Virus record (IMG/VR): IMGVR_UViG_3300035212_002004
Coordinates: 104,100 to 168,099 of that record
Source of the DNA: a virus
Lineage: Duplodnaviria > Heunggongvirae > Uroviricota > Caudoviricetes
Strand: one strand, 5' to 3'
Length of the DNA stretch: 64,000 nucleotides
Position numbers and translations under genes: made by a program. A model generated the notes under the pieces. The model was not told where the DNA came from, did not search any database, and was given only the letters and a program-made list of their open reading frames with translations. The stretch's first letter is position 1, and the number at the start of each line of letters is the position of its first letter. Positions 21,070 through 60,778 of the stretch are shown here, one piece after another.

Positions 21070-21084
21070 AACCTTTGTGTTGTT

Positions 21085-25951: not shown

Positions 25952-26002
25952 AGTTTAATTTTACTAAGTATTCGTTAATAAATATTAAACTAGAGAAGAA
26001 AA

Positions 26003-27712: not shown

Positions 27713-27760
27713 ATTATGTTTTGTGATTACTAGTTATAAATATGTATGTTTTTTATTTTT

Positions 27761-34745: not shown

Positions 34746-34786
34746 AAATTTAATATATAATATAAATATACATTAAAAATATTTTT

Positions 34787-37555: not shown

Positions 37556-37585
37556 GTTTATAAATATTTAATATTAAAACTTATT

Positions 37586-39465: not shown

Positions 39466-40319
39466 TATATTTTAAGGTTATCTGCTTGTTTTGGTGATTG
39501 ATTAAGTGTAGGAAATTTAGGGTCTGGAATTTGAAGTGAACTATTAAAAGCTGATCCTACTGTTACCCCAAATGATTGTAAATTTTTAGAAGCTAATTCT
39601 AGAGGTATATCTTGCCCAGCACATAAATAAATAGATGAACCATCATTATTAGGATCTTCATAAACTGGAACCCATGGATCAGAATTTATATCTATATTAG
39701 ATTGATTATTTCTTATAATAGTAATAGGCATTCCAATATCTCCTTGTGAACTCCAAGGATTATTAGGTTGTTTTTGTTTAGTAGTAGAAGAAAATCTAAT
39801 TGAATTACCCCATCTTCCCTCTAATAATACATCTCCTTCTTCAGGTAATAAACTGCGTATATCTTCTTTTTCAGTAAACGTATGGCCAAAATTTAGTTCA
39901 CCGCCTTTATACGCTGCTATATCAGGAAAAGCGTTATGATGAACACTATTCCAAATACCTACTGTAGTAAGATAATAAAAAGTTTTAGCTTGTGGATCTT
40001 CATTTAACCCATAAGAAGGAGCACTTAATATAAGTACTAATTCATTTAAAACTGGATATTTAGAAATATTATTAAATAAAGGCTTAGCTATTAATTTAGT
40101 AGGTTTACCTGTATCAGGTGTAGTACCTGTAGGAGTAAATTTAATCGAACCTAGTCCAGCCCAACCACCTCCATCTTTAAAAAAATCTTTAGTATTGGTA
40201 TTAGTAGATAATAAAATATCATTAACTCGAGCAAAGAAAAATAAGCTTTGACCCTTATTTCCTTTACCATTAGATATATTAGATATACTCTGTTGTAAAC
40301 TAGGATATAAATTACTCAT
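39465..40319 (-). CDS. possible baseplate hub protein
   Basis: 284-aa ORF. EGDVLLEGRWGNSIRF. Confidence 0.35.
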   Translation of the reverse strand: MSNLYPSLQQSISNISNGKGNKGQSLFFFARVNDILLSTNTNTKDFFKDGGGWAGLGSIKFTPTGTTPDTGKPTKLIAKPLFNNISKYPVLNELVLILSAPSYGLNEDPQAKTFYYLTTVGIWNSVHHNAFPDIAAYKGGELNFGHTFTEKEDIRSLLPEEGDVLLEGRWGNSIRFSSTTKQKQPNNPWSSQGDIGMPITIIRNNQSNIDINSDPWVPVYEDPNNDGSSIYLCAGQDIPLELASKNLQSFGVTVGSAFNSSLQIPDPKFPTLNQSPKQADNLKI

Positions 40320-40677
40320 TCTGTTTCTTTACAGGCAATTCAATTACTTGTTCATTTAATTGTTGTATAGACATAAATAATTGTTCTTTATCCCCATCAG
40401 ATAAAAATCCTTCATCCTCTCCATTTTTAGTATTCATAGATCTTTGAACTATACCTGCCATTTTGATTAATAGATCATCATTTTTAACTGATACGTCTAA
40501 ATAATCTTTAATAAGTGGGACAATAATAACCGCATCACCTGCGGAGGTGATAAACGGTTTTAATTGTTCAATCATTTCTTTTATTTGTTTTTCTTTATTA
40601 GAAGAATTTGTATGTATTTCTTTTAATAAATCGGCAAATGTTTTTTTACCGAATAATGTTATTGAATTAAAATCCAT
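40312..40677 (-). CDS. hypothetical protein
   Basis: 121-aa ORF. Confidence 0.45.
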   Translation of the reverse strand: MDFNSITLFGKKTFADLLKEIHTNSSNKEKQIKEMIEQLKPFITSAGDAVIIVPLIKDYLDVSVKNDDLLIKMAGIVQRSMNTKNGEDEGFLSDGDKEQLFMSIQQLNEQVIELPVKKQNE

Positions 40678-40715
40678 AATGTATTTTATTATAAATATAG
40701 GATTTATAAATCTCT

Positions 40716-41516
40716 TTAATAATTTAGGTTAACATACCCATAATCTAAATATTGTTGTAGCAATCTATAATGAACCTTTTTAAGTGATTTTATTACTTTA
40801 GTAATTTGAGGAGTATCTTGATCAGTTTGTTCTCTAATATAAATGTATATTCCTTTTTTATTAAAAATATCTAAACTTTCTCTATGTCTAAATAATTGAA
40901 TTATAGCATCTGCAGTTTTAGCATCTTCTTGATCAGGAAATATTCTAAATAGGTGTAGATCTACATATGCTATAAATTTATTTAGAAAATAATTTTCACC
41001 CATTAAAACATCATCTACTCCTTTTGAATTATTAACTATATTTAAAACAATAGTTTGATCTTCATCTATAGCTTCTACTTCAGCTTTATTTTTTAATTTT
41101 TCATAATTTTTATTATTATAAAGAATTAAATAACGTTTAGCAATAGTACCAAAATAAGAATAAGCTTTACCTTTTGATTGATTATATAAATGAAGTTTTT
41201 CAAGTAAAAATGAAATTACTTCATGCTGAAGTTCTGCTATTGTTTCTACCTCAGTATAATAGAATTTAAAGGTATGGATTATATTTTCTGTTAATTTAAA
41301 AAAACCATAATCAATACGTTCATTATAAATTCTATTTCTTTTATTAGGGTCAGTTTCAGCTAAATATTCTATAATAGCATCCTCTGTATCTTGAGTAAAA
41401 TATTGTTTTTTCTCTTTAGGTTTTCTCTTTCGAATTGTTCCTTTCTTTGTGAATTGTACCCCAGTTTCTTCTTGAGGTACAATTAATATATTTTTTACTG
41501 ATATTTCTACTTCCAT
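40716..41516 (-). CDS. candidate phage-encoded sigma factor (sigma-70 region 2-like; T4 gp55-like late sigma candidate)
   Basis: LHLYNQSKGKAYSYFGTIAKRYLI aligns with sigma region 2.2-2.3 (KFDP.RG.KFSTYATWWIRQAI). Sits immediately upstream of the structural module. Confidence 0.5.
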   Translation of the reverse strand: MEVEISVKNILIVPQEETGVQFTKKGTIRKRKPKEKKQYFTQDTEDAIIEYLAETDPNKRNRIYNERIDYGFFKLTENIIHTFKFYYTEVETIAELQHEVISFLLEKLHLYNQSKGKAYSYFGTIAKRYLILYNNKNYEKLKNKAEVEAIDEDQTIVLNIVNNSKGVDDVLMGENYFLNKFIAYVDLHLFRIFPDQEDAKTADAIIQLFRHRESLDIFNKKGIYIYIREQTDQDTPQITKVIKSLKKVHYRLLQQYLDYGYVNLNY

Positions 41517-46174: not shown

Positions 46175-46230
46175 AACGTTTAATTTTAAAATTCCATTAA
46201 ATATACGAAATTAATTTTAAACCTCCAATA

Positions 46231-46467
46231 CTATATTTGAATGCTTTTTAAGGTATTACTGAGTACGGTATAAGAGGCTCCACGTTTATCTTTAATGGTA
46301 GACTTGGCCTCGCCATATTCCATTAACATACCTATTATGTTTATATTACCCGCTGTTTTAGCCTGATAAATACATCCGATTAATGGTTTAGAAGGGGGAG
46401 CAATATAGTCTTTATACTTCTTATATTCCTTAATATATTTTTTACTGGCTATAGTAGGTAATTTCAA
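46231..46467 (-). CDS. hypothetical protein
   Basis: 78-aa ORF. Confidence 0.45.
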   Translation of the reverse strand: MKLPTIASKKYIKEYKKYKDYIAPPSKPLIGCIYQAKTAGNINIIGMLMEYGEAKSTIKDKRGASYTVLSNTLKSIQI

Positions 46468-46488
46468 TACAATGATTTTATTAATTAG

Positions 46489-46520
46489 GAGGGGAGTTAA
46501 CTCTTAACCCCCCTCACCCA
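46489..46520 (-). terminator. GC-rich stem-loop (GGGGaGTTAA-ctc-TTAACcCCCC)
   Basis: Immediately downstream of 46529..46921 stop. Confidence 0.4.
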
Positions 46521-46528
46521 CTATATTA

Positions 46529-46921
46529 TTACTCTGCTTTCGGTGCGGCTGGTCTACCTCTTTTAAGTGTACCCGCGGCGCGTCTTGCTTCCAATTCCAC
46601 TTTGCGTTTGTATGCGGCGCTTTCAGGATTTGGTTTTCTACCTAATGGCAGTGTACCCATTAGTGATAATCTAATTTGTCTGTTACTATCTTCAACAATT
46701 GGGCGACCACGTCTCAATTCACCTGATGCCCTTCTAGCCTCTAATTCTTGTAGGCGTAACTGACGATTACTTGAAGCATTCACCGGGCGACCTTTTCTAA
46801 CTGTTACACCATGTGTTGCGGCTAGTAGTGATTCCAAATAATCTGTCTTGCATTGGTGGGCTGGTTTCTCAGTTGCTAACCCTAATTCTTTTACTTTTGC
46901 AATAATTTCAATTCTGTTCAT
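46529..46921 (-). CDS. DNA-binding protein: Rho_N/HeH-like N-terminal motif + two AT-hook (R/KGRP) repeats; GC-elevated gene
   Basis: RIEIIAKVKELGL... HeH-like. Internal repeat LQELEARRASGELRRGRPI / KVELEARRAAGTLKRGRPA. Gene GC visibly higher than flanks. Confidence 0.55.
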   Translation of the reverse strand: MNRIEIIAKVKELGLATEKPAHQCKTDYLESLLAATHGVTVRKGRPVNASSNRQLRLQELEARRASGELRRGRPIVEDSNRQIRLSLMGTLPLGRKPNPESAAYKRKVELEARRAAGTLKRGRPAAPKAE

Positions 46922-47199
46922 AACATTTTACTTTTTTAATTAAACTTAATTTTTTAACTTAATAACACTTAAATATACGAAATAATTTTTAATGAGCCAA
47001 GCCGTGTTTAAAAATCGTTTTTAATCATTTCATTTATTTTATGTCTTAACTCCCTTAACATTACACTTGTTAAAGTGGTTCTGTCAAATTGTGCTTCGTG
47101 TAGGTGGTTTATTAATTCCCTTATCACAATAAATTTTTCATTTACTAATTGATTTTCTTTAGCCATTTCTAACTCTGTCATAACATAATATTTTTAAAA

Positions 47200-47415
47200 T
47201 TATACTGAAATATACGAAATTATAATTGGATTGCCAAGCAATGTATATACTTTTTTATTAGTGAAAGGAACGGACTCATGACTGAACAAAAGTGCCCATA
47301 CCTGCCTTGGTAGTTCACCCGACCCATCTAGTGTTTCCACATGCGTCACCCCATTTTTCACCCCCATTACCCCTAATACACCTTCGGAATCCATATTAGA
47401 GGTGGGGATGTACAT
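47200..47415 (-). CDS. hypothetical protein (GC-elevated)
   Basis: 71-aa ORF. Confidence 0.4.
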   Translation of the reverse strand: MYIPTSNMDSEGVLGVMGVKNGVTHVETLDGSGELPRQVWALLFSHESVPFTNKKVYTLLGNPIIISYISV

Positions 47416-47576
47416 TATACAACCTTAGGTAATTTCACCTTATTCACCACTTTATCAATAGCATTTTTGATATCTAATACCTCGTCCACCATCATTTTAG
47501 TAGTGTCATACCCTAGTTTTTGTAACATTTCATCAATAATCATTACTTTATCTATCAACCCTAATTCTGTTTTCAT
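47415..47576 (-). CDS. small hypothetical protein (53 aa), not in ORF track
   Basis: ATG 47576 preceded by promoter box. Stop overlaps next ATG (TAATG). Confidence 0.45.
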   Translation of the reverse strand: MKTELGLIDKVMIIDEMLQKLGYDTTKMMVDEVLDIKNAIDKVVNKVKLPKVV

Positions 47577-47715
47577 AACACATATTATTTAACTTATTAA
47601 TACTTAAATATACGAATTATTATTTTACTCTCCTAACACACTCGTCGGGGAGTTATTTGTGTTTTGTCCCCGACGTCACTTGTGTTATCGCTGATATTAA
47701 TTTTCTTGTTTTGTA

Positions 47716-48015
47716 TTATGCAACTAACACTTTTGGTTCATTGAACCATATTATATCAACACTTCCTTCTCTCCAATTATCACTAATCATTACCCCATCT
47801 AATAGGTTATGTTCTTCATGGTTCATGTTATACCACTTCGAGATATAATTATATTTTTCTCCACATGCAAATCCTATTGGTTCACCCCCACACATACTCC
47901 CTATTCTATAACCCATTTCTCTCAATTGTTTCTCAGCTTCATAATGTGAACTAAATGTACCTTCTACTTTCACATTCACACTTTTAACTACTTCTCTACC
48001 TAAATACTTTTCCAT
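47716..48015 (-). CDS. hypothetical protein
   Basis: 99-aa ORF preceded by promoter box. Confidence 0.5.
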   Translation of the reverse strand: MEKYLGREVVKSVNVKVEGTFSSHYEAEKQLREMGYRIGSMCGGEPIGFACGEKYNYISKWYNMNHEEHNLLDGVMISDNWREGSVDIIWFNEPKVLVA

Positions 48016-48033
48016 AACATAATATTTTTTAAA

Positions 48034-48053
48034 TTTATACTTAAATATACGAA
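48034..48053 (-). promoter_or_regulatory. representative copy of the recurrent promoter-like box (minus strand TTCGTATATTTAAGTATAAA; -10-like TATAAT/TATAAA ~17 nt before ATG)
   Basis: One of ~30 copies between 45.3 and 62 kb, e.g. near 46969, 47603, 48339, 48722, 49057, 49481, 50005, 50183, 50722, 51382, 52195, 52723, 53026, 53703, 53940, 54777, 55505, 56567, 57221, 58565, 58950, 59915, 61418, 61960. Each sits 35-45 nt upstream of a minus-strand ATG. Confidence 0.6.
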
Positions 48054-48158
48054 TTAATTTTTAACAGTCCTAATATTAATCCATCAAAGCTATACAAGCT
48101 CCTAAACCTACTACAATTACTATACCTGCTATAAATCCTATTATCATAATATATGTTT

Positions 48159-48314
48159 TTAAAGTACGTTAAGGAATTTAGATAAAATCACTACCCAAAC
48201 AAAACAAATAATTGCAACTGCATAGGGGCCAAATTCAGTTGATAATCTAAGAGATGTGATTGAATTGATCAACCAGATGAAGAAGAACTTGATGTTTCTT
48301 AATGACTTTTTCAT
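48159..48314 (-). CDS. small membrane protein (51 aa), not in ORF track
   Basis: ATG 48314 preceded by promoter box. Hydrophobic. Confidence 0.4.
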   Translation of the reverse strand: MKKSLRNIKFFFIWLINSITSLRLSTEFGPYAVAIICFVWVVILSKFLNVL

Positions 48315-48482
48315 AACATTTTATTTTTAAATTTATACTTAAATATACGAAATAAATTTAATACATCCTAATACCCTATTTAACTGGATTTAGTAAGGTC
48401 ATACATGAATACAGCCCAAGCAGTTATTATTACTACCTTTAGAATATTAGCCCATTGTTGTTGTGATATCTTTCTCATATTT

Positions 48483-48698
48483 CTATTCTTGTACATCACA
48501 TATACCTTGTGATAGGATATAATCATATAAACAATCCATTTTTCTTTCAAACGATAGATTAATTATATAACTTTGTATTATATGACTTTGTTTCAAGAAC
48601 TCAGTAATAACATTATCATCTAATAGAGACAAGTCAACATGACCATAATTCTCTCTAAAATACATTCTAACATCTTCAACTGTTTGATCTAATTTCAT
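48483..48698 (-). CDS. hypothetical protein
   Basis: 71-aa ORF with promoter box. Confidence 0.5.
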   Translation of the reverse strand: MKLDQTVEDVRMYFRENYGHVDLSLLDDNVITEFLKQSHIIQSYIINLSFERKMDCLYDYILSQGICDVQE

Positions 48699-48770
48699 AA
48701 CACTTTATTTTTTAAAATTATACTTAAATATACGAATAAAAAATTAAGGGGCCTAATACATGGCCCCTTT
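48696..48770 (-). repeat. promoter + stem-loop intergenic cassette, copy A (near-identical to 49029..49102)
   Basis: ~75-nt near-identical repeat including the AAGGGGCC-n8-GGCCCCTT hairpin and promoter box. Confidence 0.7.
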
Positions 48771-48773
48771 AAA

Positions 48774-49031
48774 TTAATCTTCAAATACTATTAAATCTTC
48801 AAATTTGTATTTAACAGTCACTTTCTTGTTCATTACAAATGTGAATCCGGTAAAACCTACTCTACCTATTTTTGATACATTTGCATGATGTCTTGAATAT
48901 ATTACTATGTCATCAATAGACGATCTACTTTCTTTCATGATACATTCATCATATTTAAAAGTTTCAGCTCCTTTATAATCTATTCCTTTCACTTTAAACG
49001 ATACTCCTGATTCAAATTGCTCTTTTGTCAT
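48774..49031 (-). CDS. hypothetical protein
   Basis: 85-aa ORF. Confidence 0.5.
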   Translation of the reverse strand: MTKEQFESGVSFKVKGIDYKGAETFKYDECIMKESRSSIDDIVIYSRHHANVSKIGRVGFTGFTFVMNKKVTVKYKFEDLIVFED

Positions 49032-49102
49032 AACACTTTATTTTTTAAAATTATACTTAAATATACGAATAAAAAATTAAGGGGCCTAATACAAGGCCCC
49101 TT
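49029..49102 (-). repeat. promoter + stem-loop intergenic cassette, copy B
   Basis: Differs from copy A by one loop base. Confidence 0.7.
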
Positions 49103-49108
49103 ATTTAA

Positions 49109-49456
49109 TTACTCATTATCTTCATCTTCCTCTAATGGTTCAAAAGCTTCTGTTAAACTATTCTCAATACAATCTCTAATTACATCAAAATTGATTGGAA
49201 CATCTGTCACTTCAATTCTTTTATCATAATTTAATTCAAACTCAACATCATCAAAACAAATAATATTGTTTCTACACGTTGATTCTTCTTCAATTGCCTC
49301 TACAATACTTTGAGCAATCTCTCTCAATTGAGTGACTGATAATTTAGGCTTCACTTGTTCTTCTTCAATCTTCTCTATAAGATTGACTACTTGTTCTGCT
49401 GAATAGAATCCAGGCATTTGATCTCTTAATAAATCAATCGTTTGCGATTTTGTCAT
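49109..49456 (-). CDS. hypothetical acidic protein
   Basis: 115-aa ORF. Confidence 0.5.
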   Translation of the reverse strand: MTKSQTIDLLRDQMPGFYSAEQVVNLIEKIEEEQVKPKLSVTQLREIAQSIVEAIEEESTCRNNIICFDDVEFELNYDKRIEVTDVPINFDVIRDCIENSLTEAFEPLEEDEDNE

Positions 49457-49522
49457 AACATTTTATTTTTTAAAATTATACTTAAATATACGAATTTTAT
49501 TTTAATAAACCTAATACACTAT

Positions 49523-49819
49523 TTATCTACTTTTTACAGACTCAATTGCTTCATGACCTGAATTAATCATTGCAATTACTCCTCCCCACATATTCTCATC
49601 AGCTTCCCATTCAATATCATGAGGCTTATGTTTCATTCCCCAATTACTTAATGCGAATCCGTTACCACTCATTTTGAAGTCACCTTCTTCATTTTTCTTA
49701 AAAGTAATGTAATGGATATTATCACACATACTCGCTACTGTTTTGAAAATTACTTCTCTTGCACCTTCTTTAATAACTAATTTAGGTGGATTTACTCTTA
49801 ATTCAACATACTTGCTCAT
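49523..49819 (-). CDS. hypothetical protein
   Basis: 98-aa ORF. Confidence 0.5.
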   Translation of the reverse strand: MSKYVELRVNPPKLVIKEGAREVIFKTVASMCDNIHYITFKKNEEGDFKMSGNGFALSNWGMKHKPHDIEWEADENMWGGVIAMINSGHEAIESVKSR

Positions 49820-49840
49820 AACATTTATTTTTTAATAAGC

Positions 49841-49975
49841 TTAATACTGGTAACATTTTAATAATCTTTTCATTACTTGATATTCAGTCATGTTTGGATA
49901 TAATACCCTCCAACTATTTCTTATACGTTGTATATGTACTCTAGTTTCGAAATGTGCTCTTGACTCTACTTTCAT
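49841..49975 (-). CDS. small hypothetical protein (44 aa), not in ORF track
   Basis: ATG 49975 with promoter box upstream. Confidence 0.35.
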   Translation of the reverse strand: MKVESRAHFETRVHIQRIRNSWRVLYPNMTEYQVMKRLLKCYQY

Positions 49976-50033
49976 AATATATTTTTTTAATTACCCTTAA
50001 ATATACGAAATAAAATTTAATAAACCTAATATA

Positions 50034-50153
50034 AATTTAATTTCTCCCCCAACGTTTCATAGAATGTTTAGTTGAAGATGGTTTATGATTACAATGGTTA
50101 GAGGCACAATTAACTAATATTAAACTTACCAAAATTATAATTAATACTTTCAT
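50034..50153 (-). CDS. small secreted/lipoprotein-like peptide (39 aa: MKVLIIILVSLILVNC...), not in ORF track
   Basis: Signal-peptide-like N-terminus ending in Cys. Promoter box upstream. Confidence 0.35.
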
Positions 50154-50289
50154 AATATTTTATTTTTTAAAATTATACTTAAATATACGAATTTTATTTT
50201 AATGAACCTAATCAATGTAAATAGCCCCTTTACGGGGCCATTCACGAGTATAATTAAAAAATATAATTGGTTATGAAACAATTATGTTG

Positions 50290-50478
50290 TTAATACTTGG
50301 CGCAATTCTTTCCATCTGCACTTCTGTATAAGGTGTATACTAACGCCTCTTTTAATTCTGTTACCTTACAATCCTTCATATTCCAGCCTCTTTCCTTAAC
50401 ATCTTTAAATAATGTTTCAGTTGTAGTTCTGATTTGATTGAATTTATCTATGGTTGTATTTATTACTTGTAATGTCAT
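50290..50478 (-). CDS. hypothetical protein
   Basis: 62-aa ORF. Confidence 0.4.
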   Translation of the reverse strand: MTLQVINTTIDKFNQIRTTTETLFKDVKERGWNMKDCKVTELKEALVYTLYRSADGKNCAKY

Positions 50479-50492
50479 AATTATGTTTAGTT

Positions 50493-50696
50493 TTAGTTGA
50501 ATAATTTATTTCCCATCTCCATGAATTTTGTGAATTCCTCTACACCCATCTCTTTAATAAGACTTGTGTTTAATATATGATACTGCTTATTTAATTCATT
50601 TCTCTCTTCTTGAGATTCATATTCCTTATTGTTAATTTTCCAATTAACATCTAATAAATCACTAAATAATTCTCTTGCTTTATCTGTTTTAAACAT
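50493..50696 (-). CDS. hypothetical protein
   Basis: 67-aa ORF with promoter box. Confidence 0.45.
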   Translation of the reverse strand: MFKTDKARELFSDLLDVNWKINNKEYESQEERNELNKQYHILNTSLIKEMGVEEFTKFMEMGNKLFN

Positions 50697-50866
50697 AACA
50701 ATATATTTTAAATTAATAATACTTAAATATACGAATTTTATTTTTATAATCCTAATACTCTATTTAAAAATAAAAATTACCCTTCTGGAGCTTCACCAGC
50801 CTTCTAGTATACTTATACCTCTCAGCTAAGAGTCAGTACGAGCTTTTTACTTTGGATAATTTTTAG

Positions 50867-50925
50867 TGGAGTGAGAGGAATCGAACCTCTTGCCTAAACA
50901 GTCTTGCCGTAATCGAACCACTCCA
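50867..50925 (-). ncRNA. 59-nt tRNA-like element: perfect 7-bp acceptor stem + canonical T-arm (AGAGG-TTCGATT-CCTCT), no recognisable D or anticodon arm
   Basis: Hand-folded. 28 nt between acceptor and T-arm contain a GGCAAGA direct repeat, not an anticodon hairpin. Confidence 0.35.
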
Positions 50926-50971
50926 GGACCTGCAGATCCAAATAATAATGACTACCAAAATTATTATTTTG

Positions 50972-51056
50972 ATGTTGTGACAGGATTCGAACCTGCATCT
51001 TTATGTCGCCCAGTATTTGTACTTACAACTTGCGTCTACCATTCCGCCACACAACA
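50972..51056 (-). tRNA. 85-nt type-II-length tRNA-like gene (acceptor, D-arm GCG-GAATGGTAGA-CGC and T-arm GCAGG-TTCGAAT-CCTGT canonical; anticodon arm not resolved by eye)
   Basis: D-arm resembles bacterial tRNA-Leu/Tyr/Ser class. Variable-arm hairpin CAT-aaag-ATG. Anticodon stem could not be paired. Confidence 0.5.
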
Positions 51057-51097
51057 AACTACATTCTAGGAATGCAAGAGAATATATAACAATTATT

Positions 51098-51358
51098 TTA
51101 AAAACATGATTGTATGATATCATCATGCCAATACCCAATATCATCATTTATAATTTCTAATTGAGCTTCAGTCATTTCCACTCCATCATAATCAGCACTT
51201 TCAATATAAGCGTCACAAAAATCTGGGTAATCATCAAAATCAATTCCACCAAATATTATATTATCAATTAAACTGTAATCCAAATCCAATTCTTCAGATT
51301 CAGGAAAGTTATCAGGATTATTTGAATTGAAATTATTATCATTATAAGTGTCTAACAT
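51098..51358 (-). CDS. hypothetical very acidic protein
   Basis: 86-aa ORF. Confidence 0.5.
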   Translation of the reverse strand: MLDTYNDNNFNSNNPDNFPESEELDLDYSLIDNIIFGGIDFDDYPDFCDAYIESADYDGVEMTEAQLEIINDDIGYWHDDIIQSCF

Positions 51359-51403
51359 AATACTATTTTTAAATTAATAATACTTAAATATACGAAATAA
51401 AAT

Positions 51404-52171
51404 TTAATAATTATAACCTTTTTTAATTTTAGAATAATCTCTTGAATCAAAAAGATTAGTTACATCTTTTATTTTACCATTTGATAATAAATCTATTAAC
51501 TGATACTTGATAAATTCTGCATCTTGGGCTAAACTACATTCAATATAATTTGAAATCCTTCCATCCCATGAATTCTGTATTAGGAACTCATCTGTGAATT
51601 CAAAACTATGTTGACCTGTTTCATTATTATAGGAAGCTGAACTATAGTTTAATTCATCTATTTTAGAAAGTAAGAACATGTAAGACATAAAAGAAGGACT
51701 TCCTATTACGTACCAACTATCTCCATCATTAAATGCTCTATACTGTATTCTTTGGATAGCTCTAAACATCTCACCTATCTCTGTTTTGCAAGGTCCTGAT
51801 TTAGGTATGTTATCTTCTTCAAATTTTTTAGTTAATGCTTTCAATTCATCTGAAACTTTGAACTTAGGTTCATATATATTATGACCACCCCTTAGACCTA
51901 TACTACCTCCTGATAATCTTTTATACTCTCTATGAATATATTCATCCATAGTTAGTGATATATATTCAGAAATATCAACTAAACCTGCTTGCTGTCCATT
52001 CCATTCAATACGTACTCCTGCTCTTTTAGCAATCATTAATTCTAACGAATCCTTACCCTTACCACCCCAGTTACCATCTTGAAAATAGAAATTTTGTAGA
52101 TCTAAATCTTTTAAATCTTGAACAACTCTTAGAGCAAATCTTAGTTTTGTAATATTTGATACTTGTGTCAT
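51404..52171 (-). CDS. hypothetical protein
   Basis: 255-aa ORF with promoter box. Confidence 0.55.
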   Translation of the reverse strand: MTQVSNITKLRFALRVVQDLKDLDLQNFYFQDGNWGGKGKDSLELMIAKRAGVRIEWNGQQAGLVDISEYISLTMDEYIHREYKRLSGGSIGLRGGHNIYEPKFKVSDELKALTKKFEEDNIPKSGPCKTEIGEMFRAIQRIQYRAFNDGDSWYVIGSPSFMSYMFLLSKIDELNYSSASYNNETGQHSFEFTDEFLIQNSWDGRISNYIECSLAQDAEFIKYQLIDLLSNGKIKDVTNLFDSRDYSKIKKGYNY

Positions 52172-52393
52172 AACCTTTATTTTTTAAATTATACTTAAAT
52201 ATACGAATTAAAAATTATAAAGCCAAATTAATATTCATCATCGTAACCTAATTCATAATCGAACTCATCCTCAATTACATCAAAATCTTTAATTAAAGCA
52301 TCTATATCTTCATCTTTAATAATTTTATAAACATCAGGTTCTTGTTCTGTGTCTAATTTGTCCCAAACCGATTTTACTTGTTTAGCCATTGTT

Positions 52394-52603
52394 TTATTTT
52401 TTAAAAATTACTCTTTTTACTCTCATCCCATCCTTATCAACATATAATTGAGGGCATACAACTGCGTTCTCAAATGATTTGTTAATAAATTGTTGTACCA
52501 TCTCAGAATCGTTAGAAGTGAATTCAGCATAGTTTTCCCAAATGACTAATACTCCATTTTGATCTAATGTAAAATCATCACAAATATAAGCTGTAAATAT
52601 CAT
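52394..52603 (-). CDS. hypothetical protein
   Basis: 69-aa ORF. Confidence 0.45.
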   Translation of the reverse strand: MIFTAYICDDFTLDQNGVLVIWENYAEFTSNDSEMVQQFINKSFENAVVCPQLYVDKDGMRVKRVIFKK

Positions 52604-52760
52604 ATCTATTTATTTTTGTTTAAATATTCAATTAATTCTTGTGATAAAACACCTCCAGCATACATTAACCATAATTCTGCTAATCTTTCTTTTGACATAA
52701 CATTTTATTTAAAATTATACTTAAATATACGAAATTAATCTATAAAATCAAATACCTTTA

Positions 52761-53006
52761 TTAGTAATAAAATTGAAAATTATAATTATCTCCTACACTT
52801 CCTAAAGTTACAGTTTCATTTTGCAAATCATCATTCCAAATACAAGTATTATAAATTTTAATAAGAGTTACCTCTGACTCACTTTTATAAGTCACTTCGT
52901 AATTATTCCAACTAATAGTATTAGTAGTTAGTTTTCCTTTAAAACCTGTTTCATTTTCAATTGCTTGATTGAAAAAATTTACAACCTGTTCATCTGATAA
53001 TTTCAT
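52761..53006 (-). CDS. hypothetical protein
   Basis: 81-aa ORF. Confidence 0.45.
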   Translation of the reverse strand: MKLSDEQVVNFFNQAIENETGFKGKLTTNTISWNNYEVTYKSESEVTLIKIYNTCIWNDDLQNETVTLGSVGDNYNFQFYY

Positions 53007-53057
53007 AACATTTTATTTAAAATTACACTTAAATATACGAAATCTTATTTAATAAGC

Positions 53058-53378
53058 CTATTCATTTATTTCTTTTATTATTTGGTCTATATAGGCTTGT
53101 GCTTCTTTATAATCCTGCTGCATTTGTTTTAATACTTTAACAGGTATTTTAGAGGTAGTAAATGGTTTATCTTTCAGGAATGTATCATTTATGCTCCAGT
53201 TTTTATTCTCCTCTAAATAAGTGTGGAGTTCAGTTTGGAATGATATAAAATCCTCTACATACTCCTCTTCACTCAACCTCTCCTTATAAAAAGTTGAGTG
53301 AAAGAATTGTACTAATTCAGCTTTAGATAAGTTTGCTTTTGAGGCAATTAATTTAGCTATCTCTAATTTAGTCAACAT
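53058..53378 (-). CDS. hypothetical protein
   Basis: 106-aa ORF. Confidence 0.5.
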   Translation of the reverse strand: MLTKLEIAKLIASKANLSKAELVQFFHSTFYKERLSEEEYVEDFISFQTELHTYLEENKNWSINDTFLKDKPFTTSKIPVKVLKQMQQDYKEAQAYIDQIIKEINE

Positions 53379-53679
53379 AATTACCTAATTCTCTTAATAC
53401 TTCATATTGAGCATCACTTGAAATACTTCTTGAATTAGACCCAATATGCCATTCAATTGTCTCATCCAAATTTAATTCTCTATATTCCTTCCAATCATAA
53501 ATTGCGAATACGTTACCTTCATCAGTTTCTAAAACCCATTCAAAATTTACTTTATCTTCTCCTGTATTATAACCATAATCAGGTTCACCAAATACATTTG
53601 TTAATTGGTTAACACTTGCTTTAAATGTCACATCTTGGAATGAGGTTCCATTTGTACTTTGATTTGTTTTAGTTGCCAT
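53368..53679 (-). CDS. hypothetical protein
   Basis: 103-aa ORF. Confidence 0.5.
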   Translation of the reverse strand: MATKTNQSTNGTSFQDVTFKASVNQLTNVFGEPDYGYNTGEDKVNFEWVLETDEGNVFAIYDWKEYRELNLDETIEWHIGSNSRSISSDAQYEVLRELGNYVD

Positions 53680-53732
53680 AACCTTTTACTTTTTTAATTA
53701 ATAATACTTAAATATACGAAATTTATTTAATA

Positions 53733-53915
53733 TTACCTAATACTATAATTAAGATATTTCCCATCTTTCCAATTCAAGGTGAGATGTTTCATATTCTCAG
53801 TTATTAGATTAGTTGATTCATCATCTCGATAGATAATAACATCCATCCAATCATCATTAAATTCCTGCTGTGTACTTGCTTCAGCTTGGTCAATAAAATA
53901 AGCTACATTCATCAT
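53733..53915 (-). CDS. hypothetical protein
   Basis: 60-aa ORF. Confidence 0.4.
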   Translation of the reverse strand: MMNVAYFIDQAEASTQQEFNDDWMDVIIYRDDESTNLITENMKHLTLNWKDGKYLNYSIR

Positions 53916-54005
53916 AACATTATATTTTTAATTAATAATACTTAAATATACGAATTATTATTTAATAAACCAAATAAGGGGTCTATTAAATAGACCCCAA
54001 CTTAA

Positions 54006-54752
54006 TTACAATACATTATAATGTTTAACTTGACCAACTAAACTCGCAATACTCACTCTTGTCTCAGTTGTTTTATAACCACTACCTATCTCAATCTCAA
54101 CTGTACATGTTCTACCTTTAACTTCAATTATTCTGATTCGATTTAATTTTGGGCAGTAAGTACGTTTTAATTCTATATGTTGTGGTATGTCAAATACAAC
54201 TCCCTCTTCAGATGATAATTTAATTAATGTTGCTTCTGATTTGAGTGTGCTTATTTTATCATCTAATTCTCTAATACCTTTATTTATTAGATTCATTTGA
54301 TCATAACTTCTTTTAAATTCATCTTTAAAAAGATTTGAAGTGTTATTGGCAGTGTCAACTAAGTCATGTTGACGTTTTAATACAACATCAGCTGCATCAC
54401 CTAATATTTTTAATCTCTTTAATTCCCATTCATCATCCCCTTTTGTTGAAGTTGTATAATAAGATAAATCAACTCCATCATAACGTTGTCCTTCCTCAAA
54501 ATATCTTTCTCTTAAATAAAGAGTAAATAATTCCTTTCTACGATTTAACTCGGAGTGGTCCATTTTAAAATAAATAGATCCTCTTGTTACTTCAATGTAG
54601 ACATCTGGATGGAACCCTTCAAAATAAGGAATTAAAGCATTACTCATTGCTTGTTCCTTTCTTGTGTAGATTTCAGATCTAGCTTCTTCTAACTCATTCT
54701 TTTGAGTTATGAAGATAGCTTTTTGCTCTTCTAATGCTTTAATTACTATCAT
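54006..54752 (-). CDS. hypothetical coiled-coil protein
   Basis: 248-aa ORF. Confidence 0.5.
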   Translation of the reverse strand: MIVIKALEEQKAIFITQKNELEEARSEIYTRKEQAMSNALIPYFEGFHPDVYIEVTRGSIYFKMDHSELNRRKELFTLYLRERYFEEGQRYDGVDLSYYTTSTKGDDEWELKRLKILGDAADVVLKRQHDLVDTANNTSNLFKDEFKRSYDQMNLINKGIRELDDKISTLKSEATLIKLSSEEGVVFDIPQHIELKRTYCPKLNRIRIIEVKGRTCTVEIEIGSGYKTTETRVSIASLVGQVKHYNVL

Positions 54753-54796
54753 AACCTTTATTTTTTAAATTATACTTAAATATACGAATTTAAAAT

Positions 54797-55195
54797 TTAT
54801 AAGCCAAATATGTTATATAACCTTTTAGCACCTGTGAACCCGTATTGACCATTTAATTTTTCGTTTAAGTCAAAATCTAAATAGGTATTCCATCGATCAA
54901 TAGTGTCTTTAGTACATCCCTTTAATGAAGTGGCTACTTGAATTACCTCCTTAGCGATTGCTTTAGGTAATTTATTATTTTCCTTTTCATATTTGGACTC
55001 ATAATTTTTACCTCCACCTTCACTATTACCTGTTCGAGGTTTAGTTTCAATCATCTCATATGACTCAATGTTTGGATTTTTAAGAAATTCCCTTACATTA
55101 TCTATTAAGATTTCATTTTTACCATTTTTGAAACAAACAATTTTATAAATGGTAATATCAGGCCTATCTTTATATTGAACTGCTACTCTACTCAT
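54797..55195 (-). CDS. hypothetical protein
   Basis: 132-aa ORF. Confidence 0.5.
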   Translation of the reverse strand: MSRVAVQYKDRPDITIYKIVCFKNGKNEILIDNVREFLKNPNIESYEMIETKPRTGNSEGGGKNYESKYEKENNKLPKAIAKEVIQVATSLKGCTKDTIDRWNTYLDFDLNEKLNGQYGFTGAKRLYNIFGL

Positions 55196-55213
55196 AACTT
55201 ATTTACTTTTAAA

Positions 55214-55480
55214 TTAACATCCATCACAATTAGAAGCATCATCTCCACATGCCCCACAATAAGTGACCTTACTATCTTCTAATTCTTCTCTTTCTTCAAA
55301 CATATACCTAACCTCATCTATTGGTTGAGACATTACTAATTGTCTTAACATTTGATCATGCATTCCTACCTGTTCAAGTATATATTGCATTGTCTCCCCA
55401 TCTACCCCTATATGAGATAGATCTGAAATTATTCTTTCTACTTTATCTCTTACTCTTAAATCTTGCATTTGTGATGTCAT
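55214..55480 (-). CDS. hypothetical protein with C-terminal Cys cluster (CGACGDDASNCDGC)
   Basis: 88-aa ORF. Confidence 0.45.
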   Translation of the reverse strand: MTSQMQDLRVRDKVERIISDLSHIGVDGETMQYILEQVGMHDQMLRQLVMSQPIDEVRYMFEEREELEDSKVTYCGACGDDASNCDGC

Positions 55481-55744
55481 AACACTTATTATTTAAAATT
55501 ATACTGAAATATACGAAATTTTATTTTACAAGCCTAACAAACTAAATAAGGACCCTTATTAGAGTCCTTTTTATTGTGTTTTTCTTTACGTTCATACTTT
55601 TTCTTATTCTTTTGAACAGTATGTCGTGACGCGGCCCAAATTTCTTGCATTGTGAATTGCACTACTTTCATTTTCATATATTAATTATTTTAACATAAAT
55701 ATACGAAGGCTCCCTATGGGAGCCTAGTACCTTATTAAAACCTA

Positions 55745-56542
55745 TTATGCTGCTATATACTCTTCAGCAATTGCCCATAACTTTTGATTCATATCAACGT
55801 CCTGTGTGAAGTTTTTAACGGCTCTTGACTTTCTTAACTTACCCTTAGCATTTAAGTAACCGAACCCACCACTTGTTAATTTCTCTTGAACTCTATTTAA
55901 TACAACCCAAACTGAATTACCTTCATCAGCTTTTCGTTCTGCTATTAATAGATTCTTAATTTCCTCATCAGGTATTTGTTTTTCCTCCCCGAATCTAGCT
56001 TCAACAGCTTTGAGAGCAAAATCATGTTGTTGTTCAGGTGTCATTTCGACTTGTGAGAATTTGTTAAGATTTGCCACCATTGTTGGCAGTGTGTTCACTA
56101 ACTCGCCAATATAATTGCGTAAATCCTCAAATGAGTAACCCATATGTCTCATTTTAAATCCTCCAAAGTCTTCAGATTTAATAACTAACCCATTTGAACA
56201 TACTAATCTAAATACTCCCATTTCAAACCTAACCGCTGTTGAGCCATCATGTGAGTTGATTAATAATAAACTTGGATACATATCAGCTTTACCTTCCTCA
56301 TTGTTAATTACAATTTCAGGATTAAAAAACTGAATTAAATGTTTTGCAGTTGCAGACGTTTTCTTTCGGGTCTTAACTGTCTTAACATCATATGGTAACC
56401 ATCCTAATGCTTCCATATCATCAACTATAGTGTCAGTTGGGATATGTACATACTTGTTAGTTAAATTCTCACTAACAACGTGATTGAATACTTGAGGTGC
56501 TAACGTGGTTAATTCCTCTCTTGATAACGCTTTTAAACTCAT
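55745..56542 (-). CDS. DUF932-like phage/plasmid-related protein
   Basis: SLLLINSHDGSTAVRFEMGVFRLVCSNG resembles the DUF932 core. 265 aa. Confidence 0.4.
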   Translation of the reverse strand: MSLKALSREELTTLAPQVFNHVVSENLTNKYVHIPTDTIVDDMEALGWLPYDVKTVKTRKKTSATAKHLIQFFNPEIVINNEEGKADMYPSLLLINSHDGSTAVRFEMGVFRLVCSNGLVIKSEDFGGFKMRHMGYSFEDLRNYIGELVNTLPTMVANLNKFSQVEMTPEQQHDFALKAVEARFGEEKQIPDEEIKNLLIAERKADEGNSVWVVLNRVQEKLTSGGFGYLNAKGKLRKSRAVKNFTQDVDMNQKLWAIAEEYIAA

Positions 56543-56916
56543 AACATTTACTTTTTTTAATTAATAATACTTAAATATACGAATTAAAAATTATAAAGCC
56601 TATTTTCTATTAAAAAGTCTTTTAAAGAAACTGGCTTTTGCCTCTACAGATTCTACAGGTGTACTTACTACTGATTCTAGATACTCTGTTGTACACATGT
56701 GTGCGGGTCTAACTGTTTTGATGTTTAATCCCTTTACCTCTTTAATAAGTTGTTGTCTTCTAGTCATAATTATTTTACTCCGTTTTGTTTATAATGATCC
56801 GCTTTGGAAAATTTCGTTGTTGATAATTCTTTCTTAACTTTAGGTTGATTTAAAGTTGGTAACCACTCAATTAATGATTGGTAATTCTTTTTAGCACTGT
56901 TTTTACTCATCTTTAT

Positions 56917-57237
56917 TTATTTATTAATTATATATTCTATTATTTCATAATTTAACCAATTTAAAGGAATCAAAACAGGGCCTTCAGTACAACTATGTGT
57001 TCCATAAAATCCCATAGTCATTGAATCGGGATCTTCATCTAATTGTTTAGTTCGAACAAGGGTTTTTGAGGATTTTCCTATTATTTGCCCTACATAAAAT
57101 TTCCATTCACCCCCAAATTCAATTTTATTTTGTTCAAATAATTTAGTCATCATTTGTACACCCAATTCATTTAATCCTTTATTTACAACCTTTTTCATAA
57201 CATTTTGTTTAAAATAATACTTAAATATACGAATCAT
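56917..57237 (-). CDS. hypothetical protein
   Basis: 106-aa ORF. Confidence 0.5.
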   Translation of the reverse strand: MIRIFKYYFKQNVMKKVVNKGLNELGVQMMTKLFEQNKIEFGGEWKFYVGQIIGKSSKTLVRTKQLDEDPDSMTMGFYGTHSCTEGPVLIPLNWLNYEIIEYIINK

Positions 57238-57240
57238 ATT

Positions 57241-58368
57241 TTACATATCCAAACGATCTATTTGAATGACTTTAGGAAATCGTAATGAACCGTCAGTTGT
57301 TTTCTCAAAATATTTAACAGTTGCTAACTTACCTATTAATTGGTCTTTAATAGCCCATATCTCTTCTAAATACTCCATTGTTCCATTAATAGTTGAGTCA
57401 AATTTAACTCCCTCTAGTGTTTGAAATGACATAGTAGCGGCTTTGTTAGCAAACTTACCTACTCCTTCATTAACTGATAGTATTTTGAACTCATCATCAT
57501 GGAACGTTTTATGTTTTAATAAACCATTGGAACGTTTATTTTCATATAACGAATTTGGGTCTCTTAATATTTGACCTTCAAATCCTTGTCCAATATAATG
57601 ACTTAATTGTTCATCTACATGTTTTGCATCAGGTAATTCATAAGTTGCAATTACTTTATAAATAAATGGATCTAAATTAAATTCTCGTTTTAAATCAAAT
57701 AAATTTTCACATCTCCCTTCATAACCATAATCAACTTCATTAGGATCTAACATATCATACATCCAATATTCAATATATTGAGCAGATAAATCTAAATCAG
57801 CTTGTGTTGGTTTAGTTTTTCTAACACATGAAATAATAGTGTTAAAATCAACGTCCCTATTTGAAGTATACAATTCACCGTCTAATACTAGGTCCGGTTG
57901 AGTATCGAAGATATGCTTTAAATTTTCATACACATGCGGTGCAGATATAATCTCTTTACCATTTCTAGTCCACATCCCATCAGATTTGACTACACATCTA
58001 ATACCATCTAGTTTAGGTTGTGATAGGATTGGAAATTTAACCTTATCTTTACGTTTATCATAATCCTGTGCCAACATTGGTGCAAAAAATACTTTCTTAT
58101 CACAATCATTAATATCCTCCCAATAACCTAAATCTTTACGTTTTTGCCATAAAGCAACCGCTTCTGATGATACTTGCTCTTCAGCTGTAGTAGCATTCTT
58201 TTTACCTATATTTTTAGGTTCACATCTTGTCCAGTCACCTGTAAATTGTTTCATATTAACAAATCCTGTTGTAGTTCTAAAACTGTCACCATCAACTTCA
58301 ATTTGCCATTGATTGATATGTTCTTTACTATTAGAACGTTTATATAATGTTGGGAATAATTTTACCAT
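57241..58368 (-). CDS. ATP-dependent DNA ligase
   Basis: Motif I KLDGIRC (KxDG). Motif III VLDGELY. Motif IV EGQILRD. Motif V LLKHK. 375 aa, T7/T4-type size. Confidence 0.8.
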   Translation of the reverse strand: MVKLFPTLYKRSNSKEHINQWQIEVDGDSFRTTTGFVNMKQFTGDWTRCEPKNIGKKNATTAEEQVSSEAVALWQKRKDLGYWEDINDCDKKVFFAPMLAQDYDKRKDKVKFPILSQPKLDGIRCVVKSDGMWTRNGKEIISAPHVYENLKHIFDTQPDLVLDGELYTSNRDVDFNTIISCVRKTKPTQADLDLSAQYIEYWMYDMLDPNEVDYGYEGRCENLFDLKREFNLDPFIYKVIATYELPDAKHVDEQLSHYIGQGFEGQILRDPNSLYENKRSNGLLKHKTFHDDEFKILSVNEGVGKFANKAATMSFQTLEGVKFDSTINGTMEYLEEIWAIKDQLIGKLATVKYFEKTTDGSLRFPKVIQIDRLDM

Positions 58369-58758
58369 AACCTTTCTTCTATTAATTCGTCTATTTGTTG
58401 TTTACAATCTTCAATACTACTGCCAGTACCTCCGGGTTCATCACAATCATTTGTATTATAAAATACATATTTTACACTTTCAAGGTGTAAATAATTATAA
58501 TCATTTATTAATATATCATAACCTTTATAATTTAACATAATACTATTTTTTAAATTAATAATACTTAAATATACGAATTAAAAATTATAAAACCAAATCA
58601 TTTTCAACTATCTCAAATCTTCTTCCATCTATGTTATTTGTACCATATATGTAAGCCAAGTTATAATCTACAAAACTTTGAATATCATTCTGAAAGATTT
58701 CATAACTATCAAAGTAAAAAGGAATAACGGTGTAAATTTTCATATTATATATTTTAAA

Positions 58759-58941
58759 TTAATCTATATTCATCACCCCTACAATCTCAGTATATTTAGT
58801 ATCCACTAATTCTTTTCTAATTTCCTTAATCTGTTTTATGTTTTCTGCTCCTACCTTTTTAATGGCTGTTTGAACGTTAACATAAAGTGATGGATGAGTT
58901 TTTCCTGTCTTTAACACTACTTGGTAATAATTTCCTATCAT
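58759..58941 (-). CDS. hypothetical protein
   Basis: 60-aa ORF. Confidence 0.4.
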   Translation of the reverse strand: MIGNYYQVVLKTGKTHPSLYVNVQTAIKKVGAENIKQIKEIRKELVDTKYTEIVGVMNID

Positions 58942-59012
58942 ATTTTTCTTTTATACTTAAATATACGAAAAAAGGCTTGAGTTACCAAGCCTTTAATCAA
59001 ATATTTTAATTA

Positions 59013-59870: not shown

Positions 59871-59948
59871 AACTACTTTTGTTTAAATTGATTTAATTGT
59901 TTATTTTTATTAATAATACTTAAATATACGAAATTTATTTTGGAAAGC

Positions 59949-60314
59949 CTAATCTAAGCCTAACTTTTTTCTCCTCCAATCAGTCTTTACTCCTGTTGCA
60001 AACATTGCATCAATTCTAGGTTTTGATTTACTCCAGGCCGGAATTGCTCCTACATACTCTATAGTATATGGGAAAACTAATCGAATTATTTGAGGAGACC
60101 TTTCAATACTCTTCTTTACATTTGCTGAGTAGTTAGGATCTATTCTATGGGAGTACTCTGAGTGATATACTGAAAATTGATTTCCTAATTTATCTAAATA
60201 CTCTGCTGTGAGTTGGTCATTTAATATACCATCATTCTCTGATAAAAATATTCTTATTACTATTAAAAATATAAGTAATAATACTGCTAAAATTATTGTT
60301 AAAAATATAATCAT
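59949..60314 (-). CDS. membrane protein (N-terminal TM), possible NfeD-like partner of SPFH protein
   Basis: Strongly hydrophobic first 25 residues. Operonic with the SPFH gene. NfeD assignment is speculative. Confidence 0.4.
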   Translation of the reverse strand: MIIFLTIILAVLLLIFLIVIRIFLSENDGILNDQLTAEYLDKLGNQFSVYHSEYSHRIDPNYSANVKKSIERSPQIIRLVFPYTIEYVGAIPAWSKSKPRIDAMFATGVKTDWRRKKLGLD

Positions 60315-60598: not shown

Positions 60599-60778
60599 AT
60601 AAGAGATTGATTCCTAATGCTTGCCAAAACCCTATTAGGTGTACTCCATCCACGGCTTTAACTAAAGCGTTGTTCCAAAGTAATTATGTTGGTAAAGCTA
60701 ATATAATAGCTCCTACCGTAATTAATACCATTGCTGCTAATACTGCTCCTAATTTTTCCATTTTACTTGTTTTAATTA

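Follow-up and report, generated by a model that had tools for sequence, protein, structure and literature searches.

In a 64,000-nucleotide (nt) stretch of a Caudoviricetes genome (positions 104,100 to 168,099 of IMG/VR record IMGVR_UViG_3300035212_002004; here called the window), one gene codes for a 266-residue protein that very probably is a highly divergent, previously unannotated phage sigma factor. The protein represents a new, very divergent family in the sigma-70 superfamily and is a formal member of neither the T4 gp55 group nor the extracytoplasmic function (ECF) group. We consider it probable that this factor redirects the host RNA polymerase (RNAP) to late promoters which have only a -10 element, ATATTTATA, and which precede the virion genes. 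The window has ~28% G+C, and its open reading frames (ORFs) of note are all on the minus strand. The source is a roughly 165-kb myovirus of the T4 morphotype; its host is probably of the Flavobacteriia type.

A sequence-only reading of the window had already proposed a sigma factor at this position, and this proposal holds. Neither an unrelated fold nor a lack of significant hits to sigma region 2 profiles was found: the predicted fold is that of sigma domain 2, and homologues of the protein match Sigma70_r2, TIGR02937 and the gp55 family of the PHROG database.

Family-level evidence for a sigma factor

A set of 150 family representatives, less than 50% identical to each other, was scanned singly against Pfam, NCBIfam and the PHROGs. 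Pfam Sigma70_r2 was matched by 40 of them (best E-value 1.3e-7), and no other Pfam family by more than three. TIGR02937 (sigma70-ECF) was matched by 43 (best E-value 8.5e-8), and of the 25 NCBIfam families matched most often, 20 are sigma factors. Among the PHROGs, phrog_234 came first (10 representatives, best E-value 4.3e-5); it is the gp55 family (T4 gp55 itself scores at 2.9e-69). Weak matches to two PHROGs annotated as "RNA polymerase sigma factor" (phrog_1740 and phrog_351) were obtained for six members (best E-value 7e-4). No unrelated family recurred in more than one member in NCBIfam or the PHROGs. Transitive homology to sigma profiles is thus found at the level of the family. The window protein itself has sub-threshold matches to ECF-type sigma factors in NCBIfam (aa 36-133, E-value 0.003). 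The hidden Markov model search that had been proposed as a check is therefore positive for the distant homologues (Sigma70_r2 and the gp55 PHROG) and negative for the window protein alone in Pfam and the PHROGs.

When the family profile is compared with T4 gp55 by hhalign, the alignment is collinear over 98 columns (E-value 4e-4, probability 35%). Helix KLTENIIHTFKFYY (aa 74-87) is aligned to gp55 LIAEGLSKRFNF, on which the family's KLxENIIHTFKF helix sits, and the motif LHxY..KGKAFSYF also falls on its gp55 counterpart. The segment EKLHLYNQSKGKAYSYFGTIAKRYLI (aa 106-131), which had been flagged for its resemblance to sigma regions 2.2-2.3, falls within the most conserved block of the family and aligns to gp55. 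Residues A118, S120, Y121, F122 and I131 are nearly invariant among 150 distant relatives. An ungapped reading against E. coli sigma-70 regions 2.2-2.4 agrees with the alignment given in the sequence-only reading.

Two helical domains (aa 41-145 and aa 170-260) are predicted with confidence in an AlphaFold2 model for which 80 aligned sequences were used; a disordered linker lies between them, and the N-terminus is basic and disordered. The N-terminal extension (aa 1-40) is variable in the alignment, and other clades lack it or have a different one. The first domain has the helical bundle of sigma domain 2 (regions 1.2-2.4). Its best structural match is gp55 (PDB 7d7d chain F), so that the structure prediction, also suggested as a check, came out in favour of a sigma factor; the Foldseek matches are weak and mostly sigma factors too. 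This domain is very probably a sigma-2 domain.

The second domain is a putative sigma region 4; in sigma factors, this HTH region contacts the beta flap and the -35 element. In structure comparisons with the model it covers sigma region-4 chains almost end to end (64 of 69 residues for sigmaE region 4; RpoH, FliA, SigL and WhiG were also named), and it is likewise similar to generic HTH and winged-helix proteins. Within it, K220, K221, Y224 and E229 of the stretch KKGIYIYIREQTDQDTPQITKVIKSLKK are invariant in the family alignment, and T239 is conserved. When a profile of the C-terminal domain was compared with PDB sequences, the sole match was a weak one, which places this stretch on the HTH of a TrpR-like protein; Pfam Trp_repressor is matched by three of the 150 family members.

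Some close relatives (P0079 and P0097, 326 aa) have an insertion of ~60 aa at the equivalent of window aa 115-116, between LHLYxxSK and KAFSYF. This is the region 2.2/2.3 loop of the sigma-2 domain, a position analogous to that of the non-conserved insertions of primary sigma factors. Other insertions or fusions are suggested by several family representatives of 300-500 aa whose match is split into two parts.

The family is large. At least 7,000 significant clusters at 90% identity were obtained in each of three word-indexed searches (at least 7,600 in one of them). An exhaustive profile search of 1.84 billion representatives yielded 2,430 clusters at 50% identity with an E-value of at most 1e-3, 478 of them at 1e-30 or below. 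In the sources, the proteins are called "hypothetical protein" or carry evident misnomers throughout. The identical protein is present on metagenomic contigs of up to 168 kb, and no near-identical DNA was found among deposited phages. The only deposited phage genomes with a family member are those of the Flavobacterium "immuto" myoviruses (44% identity), Microcystis phage Mel-JY01 (40%) and a 484-kb uncultured phage (36%), and the gene is unannotated in all of these. No description of the family or of the motif ATATTTATA was found in the literature. The switch of a host RNAP to late genes by a phage sigma factor is a textbook mechanism; the novelty lies in the scale of the family and in the annotation gap, as a family that spans aquatic metagenomes, cultured Flavobacterium phages and a huge phage of 484 kb has no Pfam or PHROG family. 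The group is abundant, the transcription signals of Bacteroidota are atypical, and phage regulation in such hosts has barely been studied.

Promoter-like boxes and the proposed late switch

Three promoter-like classes exist in the window, and their strand bias, positional enrichment and conservation are observed directly. The late-type motif is nATATTTATA with the 9-bp core ATATTTATA, and it is strand-specific. In 21 spacers outside the early class (1,750 nt), the gene strand has nine occurrences of ATATTTATW and the other strand none. In 2,000 shuffles the mean was 0.58 and the maximum 5, and the coding sequence (40.7 kb) has five occurrences per strand. The first position of the motif is not T in seven of ten sites, which breaks the TA of the sigma-A -7 box. 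The boxes precede virion and other late genes at a distance of 10-48 nt (median 24). The first of them lies directly behind the sigma gene (40690..40698), where its 9-bp core is invariant in seven lineages and its flanks diverge. In relatives, ATATTTATA is found in nearly every spacer of the baseplate module, including orthologous positions; it was not seen in the short loci examined of clades such as LR756508 and Mel-JY01.

Across the complete immuto genome, the late box has 25 sites on the gene strand and three on the other, and 19 sites are in spacers (shuffles: mean 1.9, maximum 8). It precedes the genes for the terminase large subunit, tail sheath, tube/completion protein, baseplate hub, tail spike, fibres and structural proteins, as well as two genes named by their position, the one ahead of the major capsid protein and the one behind sigma. 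A profile pooled from 29 late sites holds no information upstream of the core, and the late architecture is therefore considered to be -10-only, as in the late promoters of T4, which have only a -10-like element (PMC7892883). An "AA" signal ~17 nt upstream of the late boxes of the window was tried as a -35 element and rejected; it is the stop codon of the preceding gene and is gone in the pooled profile.

At one site (37559..37567) the spacing to the ATG is short and is kept at the orthologous sites of loci L006-L010, which points to leaderless or near-leaderless late mRNA or to a mis-called start. A single ATATTTATA occurs inside the early region (62831-62839, minus strand), 12 nt before the ATG at 62827 and overlapping a TATATTTATATTTATG repeat; this may be a chance occurrence or mark a late-expressed gene in the early block.

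The early box, TTCGTATATTTAAGTAT, has 28 matches with at most two mismatches (0.07 expected), all on the gene strand, which bears out the distinct early-region box of the sequence-only reading. The idea of a late promoter class set apart from it is also supported, in the form of ATATTTATA; the start contexts named at the time are at chance level and were rejected as a promoter signature. ACATAATATG has two sites (27038-27047 and 27710-27719; 0.72 expected), a number reached in 15 of 100 shuffles, and ACTATAATATG has one (25098-25108; 0.38 expected), which is reached in 29 of 100.

The profile of the early class, TTaGG-N18-TTCG-TATATTTA-AGTAT, has the -33/-7 layout of sigma-A promoters. Immuto shares the early box (as TTCrTATATTTAgGTAT), and its early-type boxes are mainly confined to the block of small ORFs upstream of sigma. 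For Flavobacterium sigma-A, the -7 consensus is TAnnTTTG at positions -12 to -5 (PMC9723704). The TATATTTA part of the early box fits this -7 box. The -33 element of Bacteroidota is TTTG, and the early upstream TTnGG fits it. Seven further boxes, gTTTGGc-N~18-TATATTT without TTCG, precede replication genes (first T at 21109, 11947, 10400, 9010, 8676, 7428 and 6285), often just after a terminator-like hairpin.

Many early boxes directly follow G+C-rich hairpins such as GGGGCCTTGTATTAGGCCCC (examples at 49053-49110 and 48720-48777, minus strand). The -33-like TTAGG is part of the hairpin in these cases, so that the terminator overlaps the promoter that follows. The region from 46 to 62 kb has a very compact cassette architecture of ~30 one-gene early units.

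From these elements a temporal model can be composed. Early genes would be transcribed by the host sigma-A holoenzyme from the bipartite promoters (-33-like TTnGG and -7-like TATATTTA), and the replication genes probably by the same holoenzyme. The sigma gene is at the distal end of the early region, and its product would accumulate and replace sigma-A on the host core RNAP. The sigma-2 domain would bind to the beta-prime clamp helices, and the C-terminal domain probably to the beta flap. This new holoenzyme would then start at the compact -10-only ATATTTATA boxes, of which the first is directly downstream of the factor's own gene. Core RNAP binding is predicted, ATATTTATA is a putative promoter, and the sigma-like protein is the candidate for reading it. 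Because the immuto annotation has no RNA polymerase, no other sigma factor and no sliding clamp, the host core RNAP is the likely partner; gp33 is also absent from it. A phage RNAP was rejected as partner, as the sole label of this kind in immuto ("RNAP subunit N") belongs to a 100-aa ORF and is not credible. With a sigma-A-type early class, a sigma-A-type replication class and a -10-only ATATTTATA late class, the model is complete and directly testable, and immuto on Flavobacterium sp. LMO8 is a cultured system for it.

Several observations weigh against this interpretation. Taken alone, the window protein has no match in Pfam at E-values up to 10 or in the PHROGs up to 0.01, and it reaches the gathering threshold of no curated sigma profile; NF008890 scores 16.9 bits (E-value 0.0032) with a cut-off of 284 bits. 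Among PDB sequences, no sigma factor was found: the window protein gave no match and the family profiles gave only noise. The lowest Foldseek E-value is not below 0.26. An hhalign comparison with the single E. coli sigmaE sequence falls on regions 2.2-2.4, which is the right place, at an E-value of 0.043 that is not significant. A two-domain sigma factor would normally suit a bipartite promoter; here, the late class lacks a -35-like element and it is the early class that is bipartite. In immuto (L013-L016), the late box also precedes genes which are not structural, such as those for GroES (40251) and PhoH (130555), and a C-type lectin-domain gene (10527), and this suggests that these auxiliary genes are expressed with the late class. 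Some late boxes are only 10-13 nt from the ATG and would need leaderless or near-leaderless mRNAs. The labels "early" and "late" are themselves assigned from gene content and position.

With respect to the surplus domain, the C-terminal part may serve only as a flap anchor, or may dock a partner. In T4, the role of flap anchor belongs to gp33 (PMC7892883). It is tempting to speculate that the protein founds a globally abundant and wholly unannotated family of late sigma factors made of a single chain, which belongs to aquatic phages of the T4 morphotype and in which a gp55-type sigma-2 domain and a sigma-4-like flap-binding domain form a one-polypeptide equivalent of gp55 plus gp33 that acts on ATATTTATA independently of a clamp. 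We regard this extension as doubtful, though conceivable. If it were true, the single-chain sigma could have an intermediate place in evolution, between the ECF sigma factors of cells and the split late machinery of T4.

The main rival to a ATATTTATA-reading factor is a genuine sigma factor with other targets. It would recognize the bipartite boxes (TTaGG-N18-TTCGTATATTTAAGTAT and/or TTTGG-N18-TATATTT), and the reader of ATATTTATA would be either the host holoenzyme together with some other phage factor or something encoded outside the window. A promoter with two elements suits a protein with sigma-2 and sigma-4-like domains better than a -10-only promoter does, and the early box is unusually conserved (20 perfect 17-mers, and common to immuto), as is typical of factor-specific phage promoters. 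However, the sigma gene is downstream of all 28 early boxes and has no good one of its own, so that the protein would be absent before early transcription unless virions carry it. The early and replication boxes, moreover, fit the host sigma-A -7 consensus with a -33-like TTnG, the invariant late box lies immediately after the sigma gene in seven lineages, and the best structural match, gp55, is a -10-only late sigma. Disfavoured by gene order and by the host-like boxes, this alternative is in our view unlikely.

It is less probable still that the factor works in the full gp55 mode, as a weak late sigma which needs accessory factors (a clamp, another DNA-loaded activator or a co-activator) and whose C-terminal domain or tail is a docking site and not a DNA-reading sigma-4. 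This would agree with gp55 as the top structural match and its PHROG as the most frequent one, with -10-only late promoters as in T4, and with the small ORFs on both sides of the gene in every clade. In addition, FF is found in the last eight residues of 18 of the 150 members (1.2% background, P ~7e-13). The window protein, however, has no FF tail and ends in GYVNLNY (40719-40739), no clamp is recognizable in the window or annotated in immuto (which has PolA/DnaB replication), and the small downstream ORF has no similarity to gp33 (E-value 0.29). This alternative would refine the preferred reading rather than contradict it. The FF tails (for example ..GSFF, ..NKFF and ..TFFQ) are reminiscent of clamp- or partner-binding peptides such as SLDFLY of gp55.

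That the protein is no initiation factor at all, being instead a helical HTH regulator, an RNAP-binding modulator (sigma mimic or decoy, anti-sigma-like appropriator) or a specificity subunit of a phage-encoded RNAP, would accord with the lack of significant profile matches of its own and with the resemblance of the C-terminal domain to generic HTH and winged-helix proteins, but is very improbable given that 40-43 of the 150 homologues independently match sigma profiles (down to ~1e-7), that conservation in the family is highest in the region 2.1-2.4 motifs and that no RNAP genes are annotated in the complete genome of a relative.

Gene neighbourhood and feature coordinates

In the direction of transcription, the window starts with small ORFs and a DNA ligase gene (64 to 43 kb), followed by a short operon with the sigma candidate (glutaredoxin-like ORF, HD phosphohydrolase, 92-aa transmembrane ORF, candidate), by the baseplate/fibre block (40.7 to 21.7 kb) and by replication genes (21 to 1 kb: primase, polymerase exonuclease subunit, AAA ATPase, HNH/GIY-YIG endonucleases). 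The gene had been described as heading the fibre/baseplate block, and this is correct: the 121-aa ORF comes next, and then genes for hub-like, gp25-like (PF04965 in orthologues) and gp6-like wedge (phrog_219) proteins and a fibre-size ORF of 1870 aa. The order of small transmembrane ORF, candidate, small acidic ORF, hub, gp25-like protein and gp6-like wedge is kept in all nine of nine loci, including clades at 36-45% identity. In one clade, ClpP replaces the HD hydrolase as upstream neighbour and the order is otherwise kept. The position of the sigma gene immediately upstream of the baseplate module can serve as an annotation rule, and the late motif is usable for genome annotation. The complete immuto genome (160 kb, MW353176) has T4-type portal, capsid, protease, sheath and baseplate genes. 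Coordinates of features are given in Table 1.

Table 1. Features of the window with their positions (all on the minus strand); pLDDT, predicted local distance difference test
Feature	Position	Strand	Remarks
Gene for the 266-aa sigma-like protein	40716..41516	-	ATG-initiated ORF call, stop codon included
N-terminal extension (aa 1-40), Lys/Arg-rich KKGTIRKRKPKEKK, predicted disordered	41397..41516	-	pLDDT 34-65
Sigma domain-2-like helical domain (aa 41-145)	41082..41396	-	AlphaFold2 model
Region 2.1-like conserved helix KLTENIIHTFKFYY (aa 74-87)	41256..41297	-	invariant block in 24- and 80-sequence alignments
Region 2.2-2.4-like segment EKLHLYNQSKGKAYSYFGTIAKRYLI (aa 106-131)	41124..41201	-	conservation and alignment to gp55
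Flexible interdomain linker (aa 146-169)	41010..41081	-	pLDDT <50; length varies in alignments
C-terminal four-to-five-helix domain (aa 170-260), putative sigma-region-4-like	40737..41009	-	
HTH-like stretch KKGIYIYIREQTDQDTPQITKVIKSLKK (aa 220-247)	40776..40859	-	conserved residues and weak profile alignment
Syntenic 92-aa ORF with N-terminal transmembrane helix	41518..41796	-	ORF call; abuts the sigma gene upstream
Syntenic 121-aa acidic ORF (pI 4.9)	40312..40677	-	family alignment; first gene behind the first late box
Late-type box ATATTTATA	40690..40698	-	within the spacer of 38 nt that directly follows the sigma gene, 21 nt before ATG 40677
Late-type box ATATTTATA	37559..37567	-	12 nt before ATG 37555; orthologous site kept in L006-L009
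Late-type box ATATTTATA	34761..34769	-	24 nt before ATG 34745; orthologous site kept in L006 and L007
Late-type box ATATTTATA	27735..27743	-	31 nt before ATG 27712
Late-type box ATATTTATT	25977..25985	-	34 nt before ATG 25951
Late-type box ATATTTATA	19366..19374	-	30 nt before ATG 19344
Late-type box ATATTTATA	17089..17097	-	23 nt before ATG 17074
Late-type box ATATTTATA	4367..4375	-	24 nt before ATG 4351
Late-type box ATATTTATA	2843..2851	-	39 nt before ATG 2812; first base overlaps the upstream stop codon
Late-type box ATATTTATT	2000..2008	-	31 nt before ATG 1977
28 early boxes TTaGG-N18-TTCGTATATTTAAGTAT	46189..61973	-	each ~24-37 nt (few further) upstream of a small ORF
Seven replication-gene boxes gTTTGGc-N~18-TATATTT	6279..21109	-	before primase, pol-exonuclease, ATPase and neighbouring genes

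A small ORF is found at the position of the 92-aa ORF in all clades; in the 484-kb phage it has 107 aa and a transmembrane N-terminus. The 92-aa ORF has a weak match to the PHROG "Rz-like spanin" (E-value 0.0026), and no anti-sigma domain was matched in the Pfam and PHROG scans of the window proteins. Its role might be that of an anti-sigma or timing factor tethered to the membrane. Nothing promoter-like is conserved across relatives upstream of the operon of glutaredoxin, HD, transmembrane and sigma genes.

The 121-aa ORF is kept in all clades and has the invariant motif IVPLIK(D/E)YL..VKND..LIK. It has no similarity to any PDB sequence. As a gp33 analogue it was rejected upon the hhalign comparison with T4 gp33 reported above. 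A sliding clamp was not matched by Pfam in the window; the ORF at 4384-5070 has the length of gp45 (228 aa), has no Pfam or PHROG match, and was rejected as a clamp candidate.

Mobile endonuclease-type genes are scattered on the minus strand in the replication and early regions (1339-1977, 5073-6251 and 43610-44245). The types are GIY-YIG/HNH homing endonuclease (phrog_314), a 392-aa HNH protein (phrog_1314) and a T5orf172/MUG113 domain protein.

Comparison with known sigma factors

The protein resembles T4 gp55 in its collinear profile alignment, which includes the LHxF/YD...aromatic motif, and in being encoded by phages with T4-type head, tail and baseplate genes. A further likeness, predicted here in silico, is the AT-rich, -10-only late motif, 8-9 bp long, in front of virion genes. 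The sequence similarity is, however, marginal: the immuto homologue (immuto35A_152) scores against phrog_234 at an E-value of 0.5, and membership by sequence profile fails. The window protein is ~80 aa longer and has an extra folded C-terminal domain of ~90 aa. While gp55 ends in SLDFLYEAND, the window protein has no clamp-binding tail of the SLDFLY type, and a terminal FF is found in only 12% of the family. A gp33-like or gp45-like partner was not found in the adjacent ORF, in the Pfam scan of the window or in the immuto annotation, although divergent analogues may exist. The motif is ATATTTATA here and TATAAATA in T4, and the gene is located beside the baseplate module here and among nucleotide-metabolism genes in T4.

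With ECF (group 4) sigma factors such as E. coli sigmaE, B. subtilis SigW and M. tuberculosis SigK, the protein shares a similar size and, according to the model, may share the arrangement of sigma-2, linker and sigma-4-like domain without sigma-3. In the two-domain model with its disordered linker, the sigma-2 part of this architecture is firm and the sigma-4 part is only compatible. TIGR02937 is the model matched by the largest number of family members, and the motif aFSYFxxIAKNYLI resembles the ECF motif of regions 2.3-2.4, in an alignment with sigmaE that is not significant. All scores, however, are far below the curated cut-offs. ECF targets are bipartite promoters with a -35 of the AAC type and a -10 of the CGT type, are usually autoregulated, and ECF genes are co-transcribed with a cognate anti-sigma factor. 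The late motif has no -35 element and no AAC/CGT signature, and no such promoter is conserved upstream of the sigma operon. No recognizable anti-sigma domain protein is adjacent, only the small transmembrane ORF upstream, and the factor is phage-encoded and linked to a virion module. As the protein fails the gp55 tests of profile, architecture and partner as well as the ECF tests of threshold and promoter type, we assign it to a separate family within the sigma-70 superfamily.

Other phage factors of the sigma-70 family are gp28 and gp33/34 of Bacillus phage SPO1 and gp36 of phiEco32, which use bipartite promoters. Profile matches to other phage sigma factors (phrog_1740 and phrog_351) are few and weak. 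The likeness to these systems is in the principle by which a phage sigma replaces the host sigma on the host core RNAP and thus switches between temporal gene classes.

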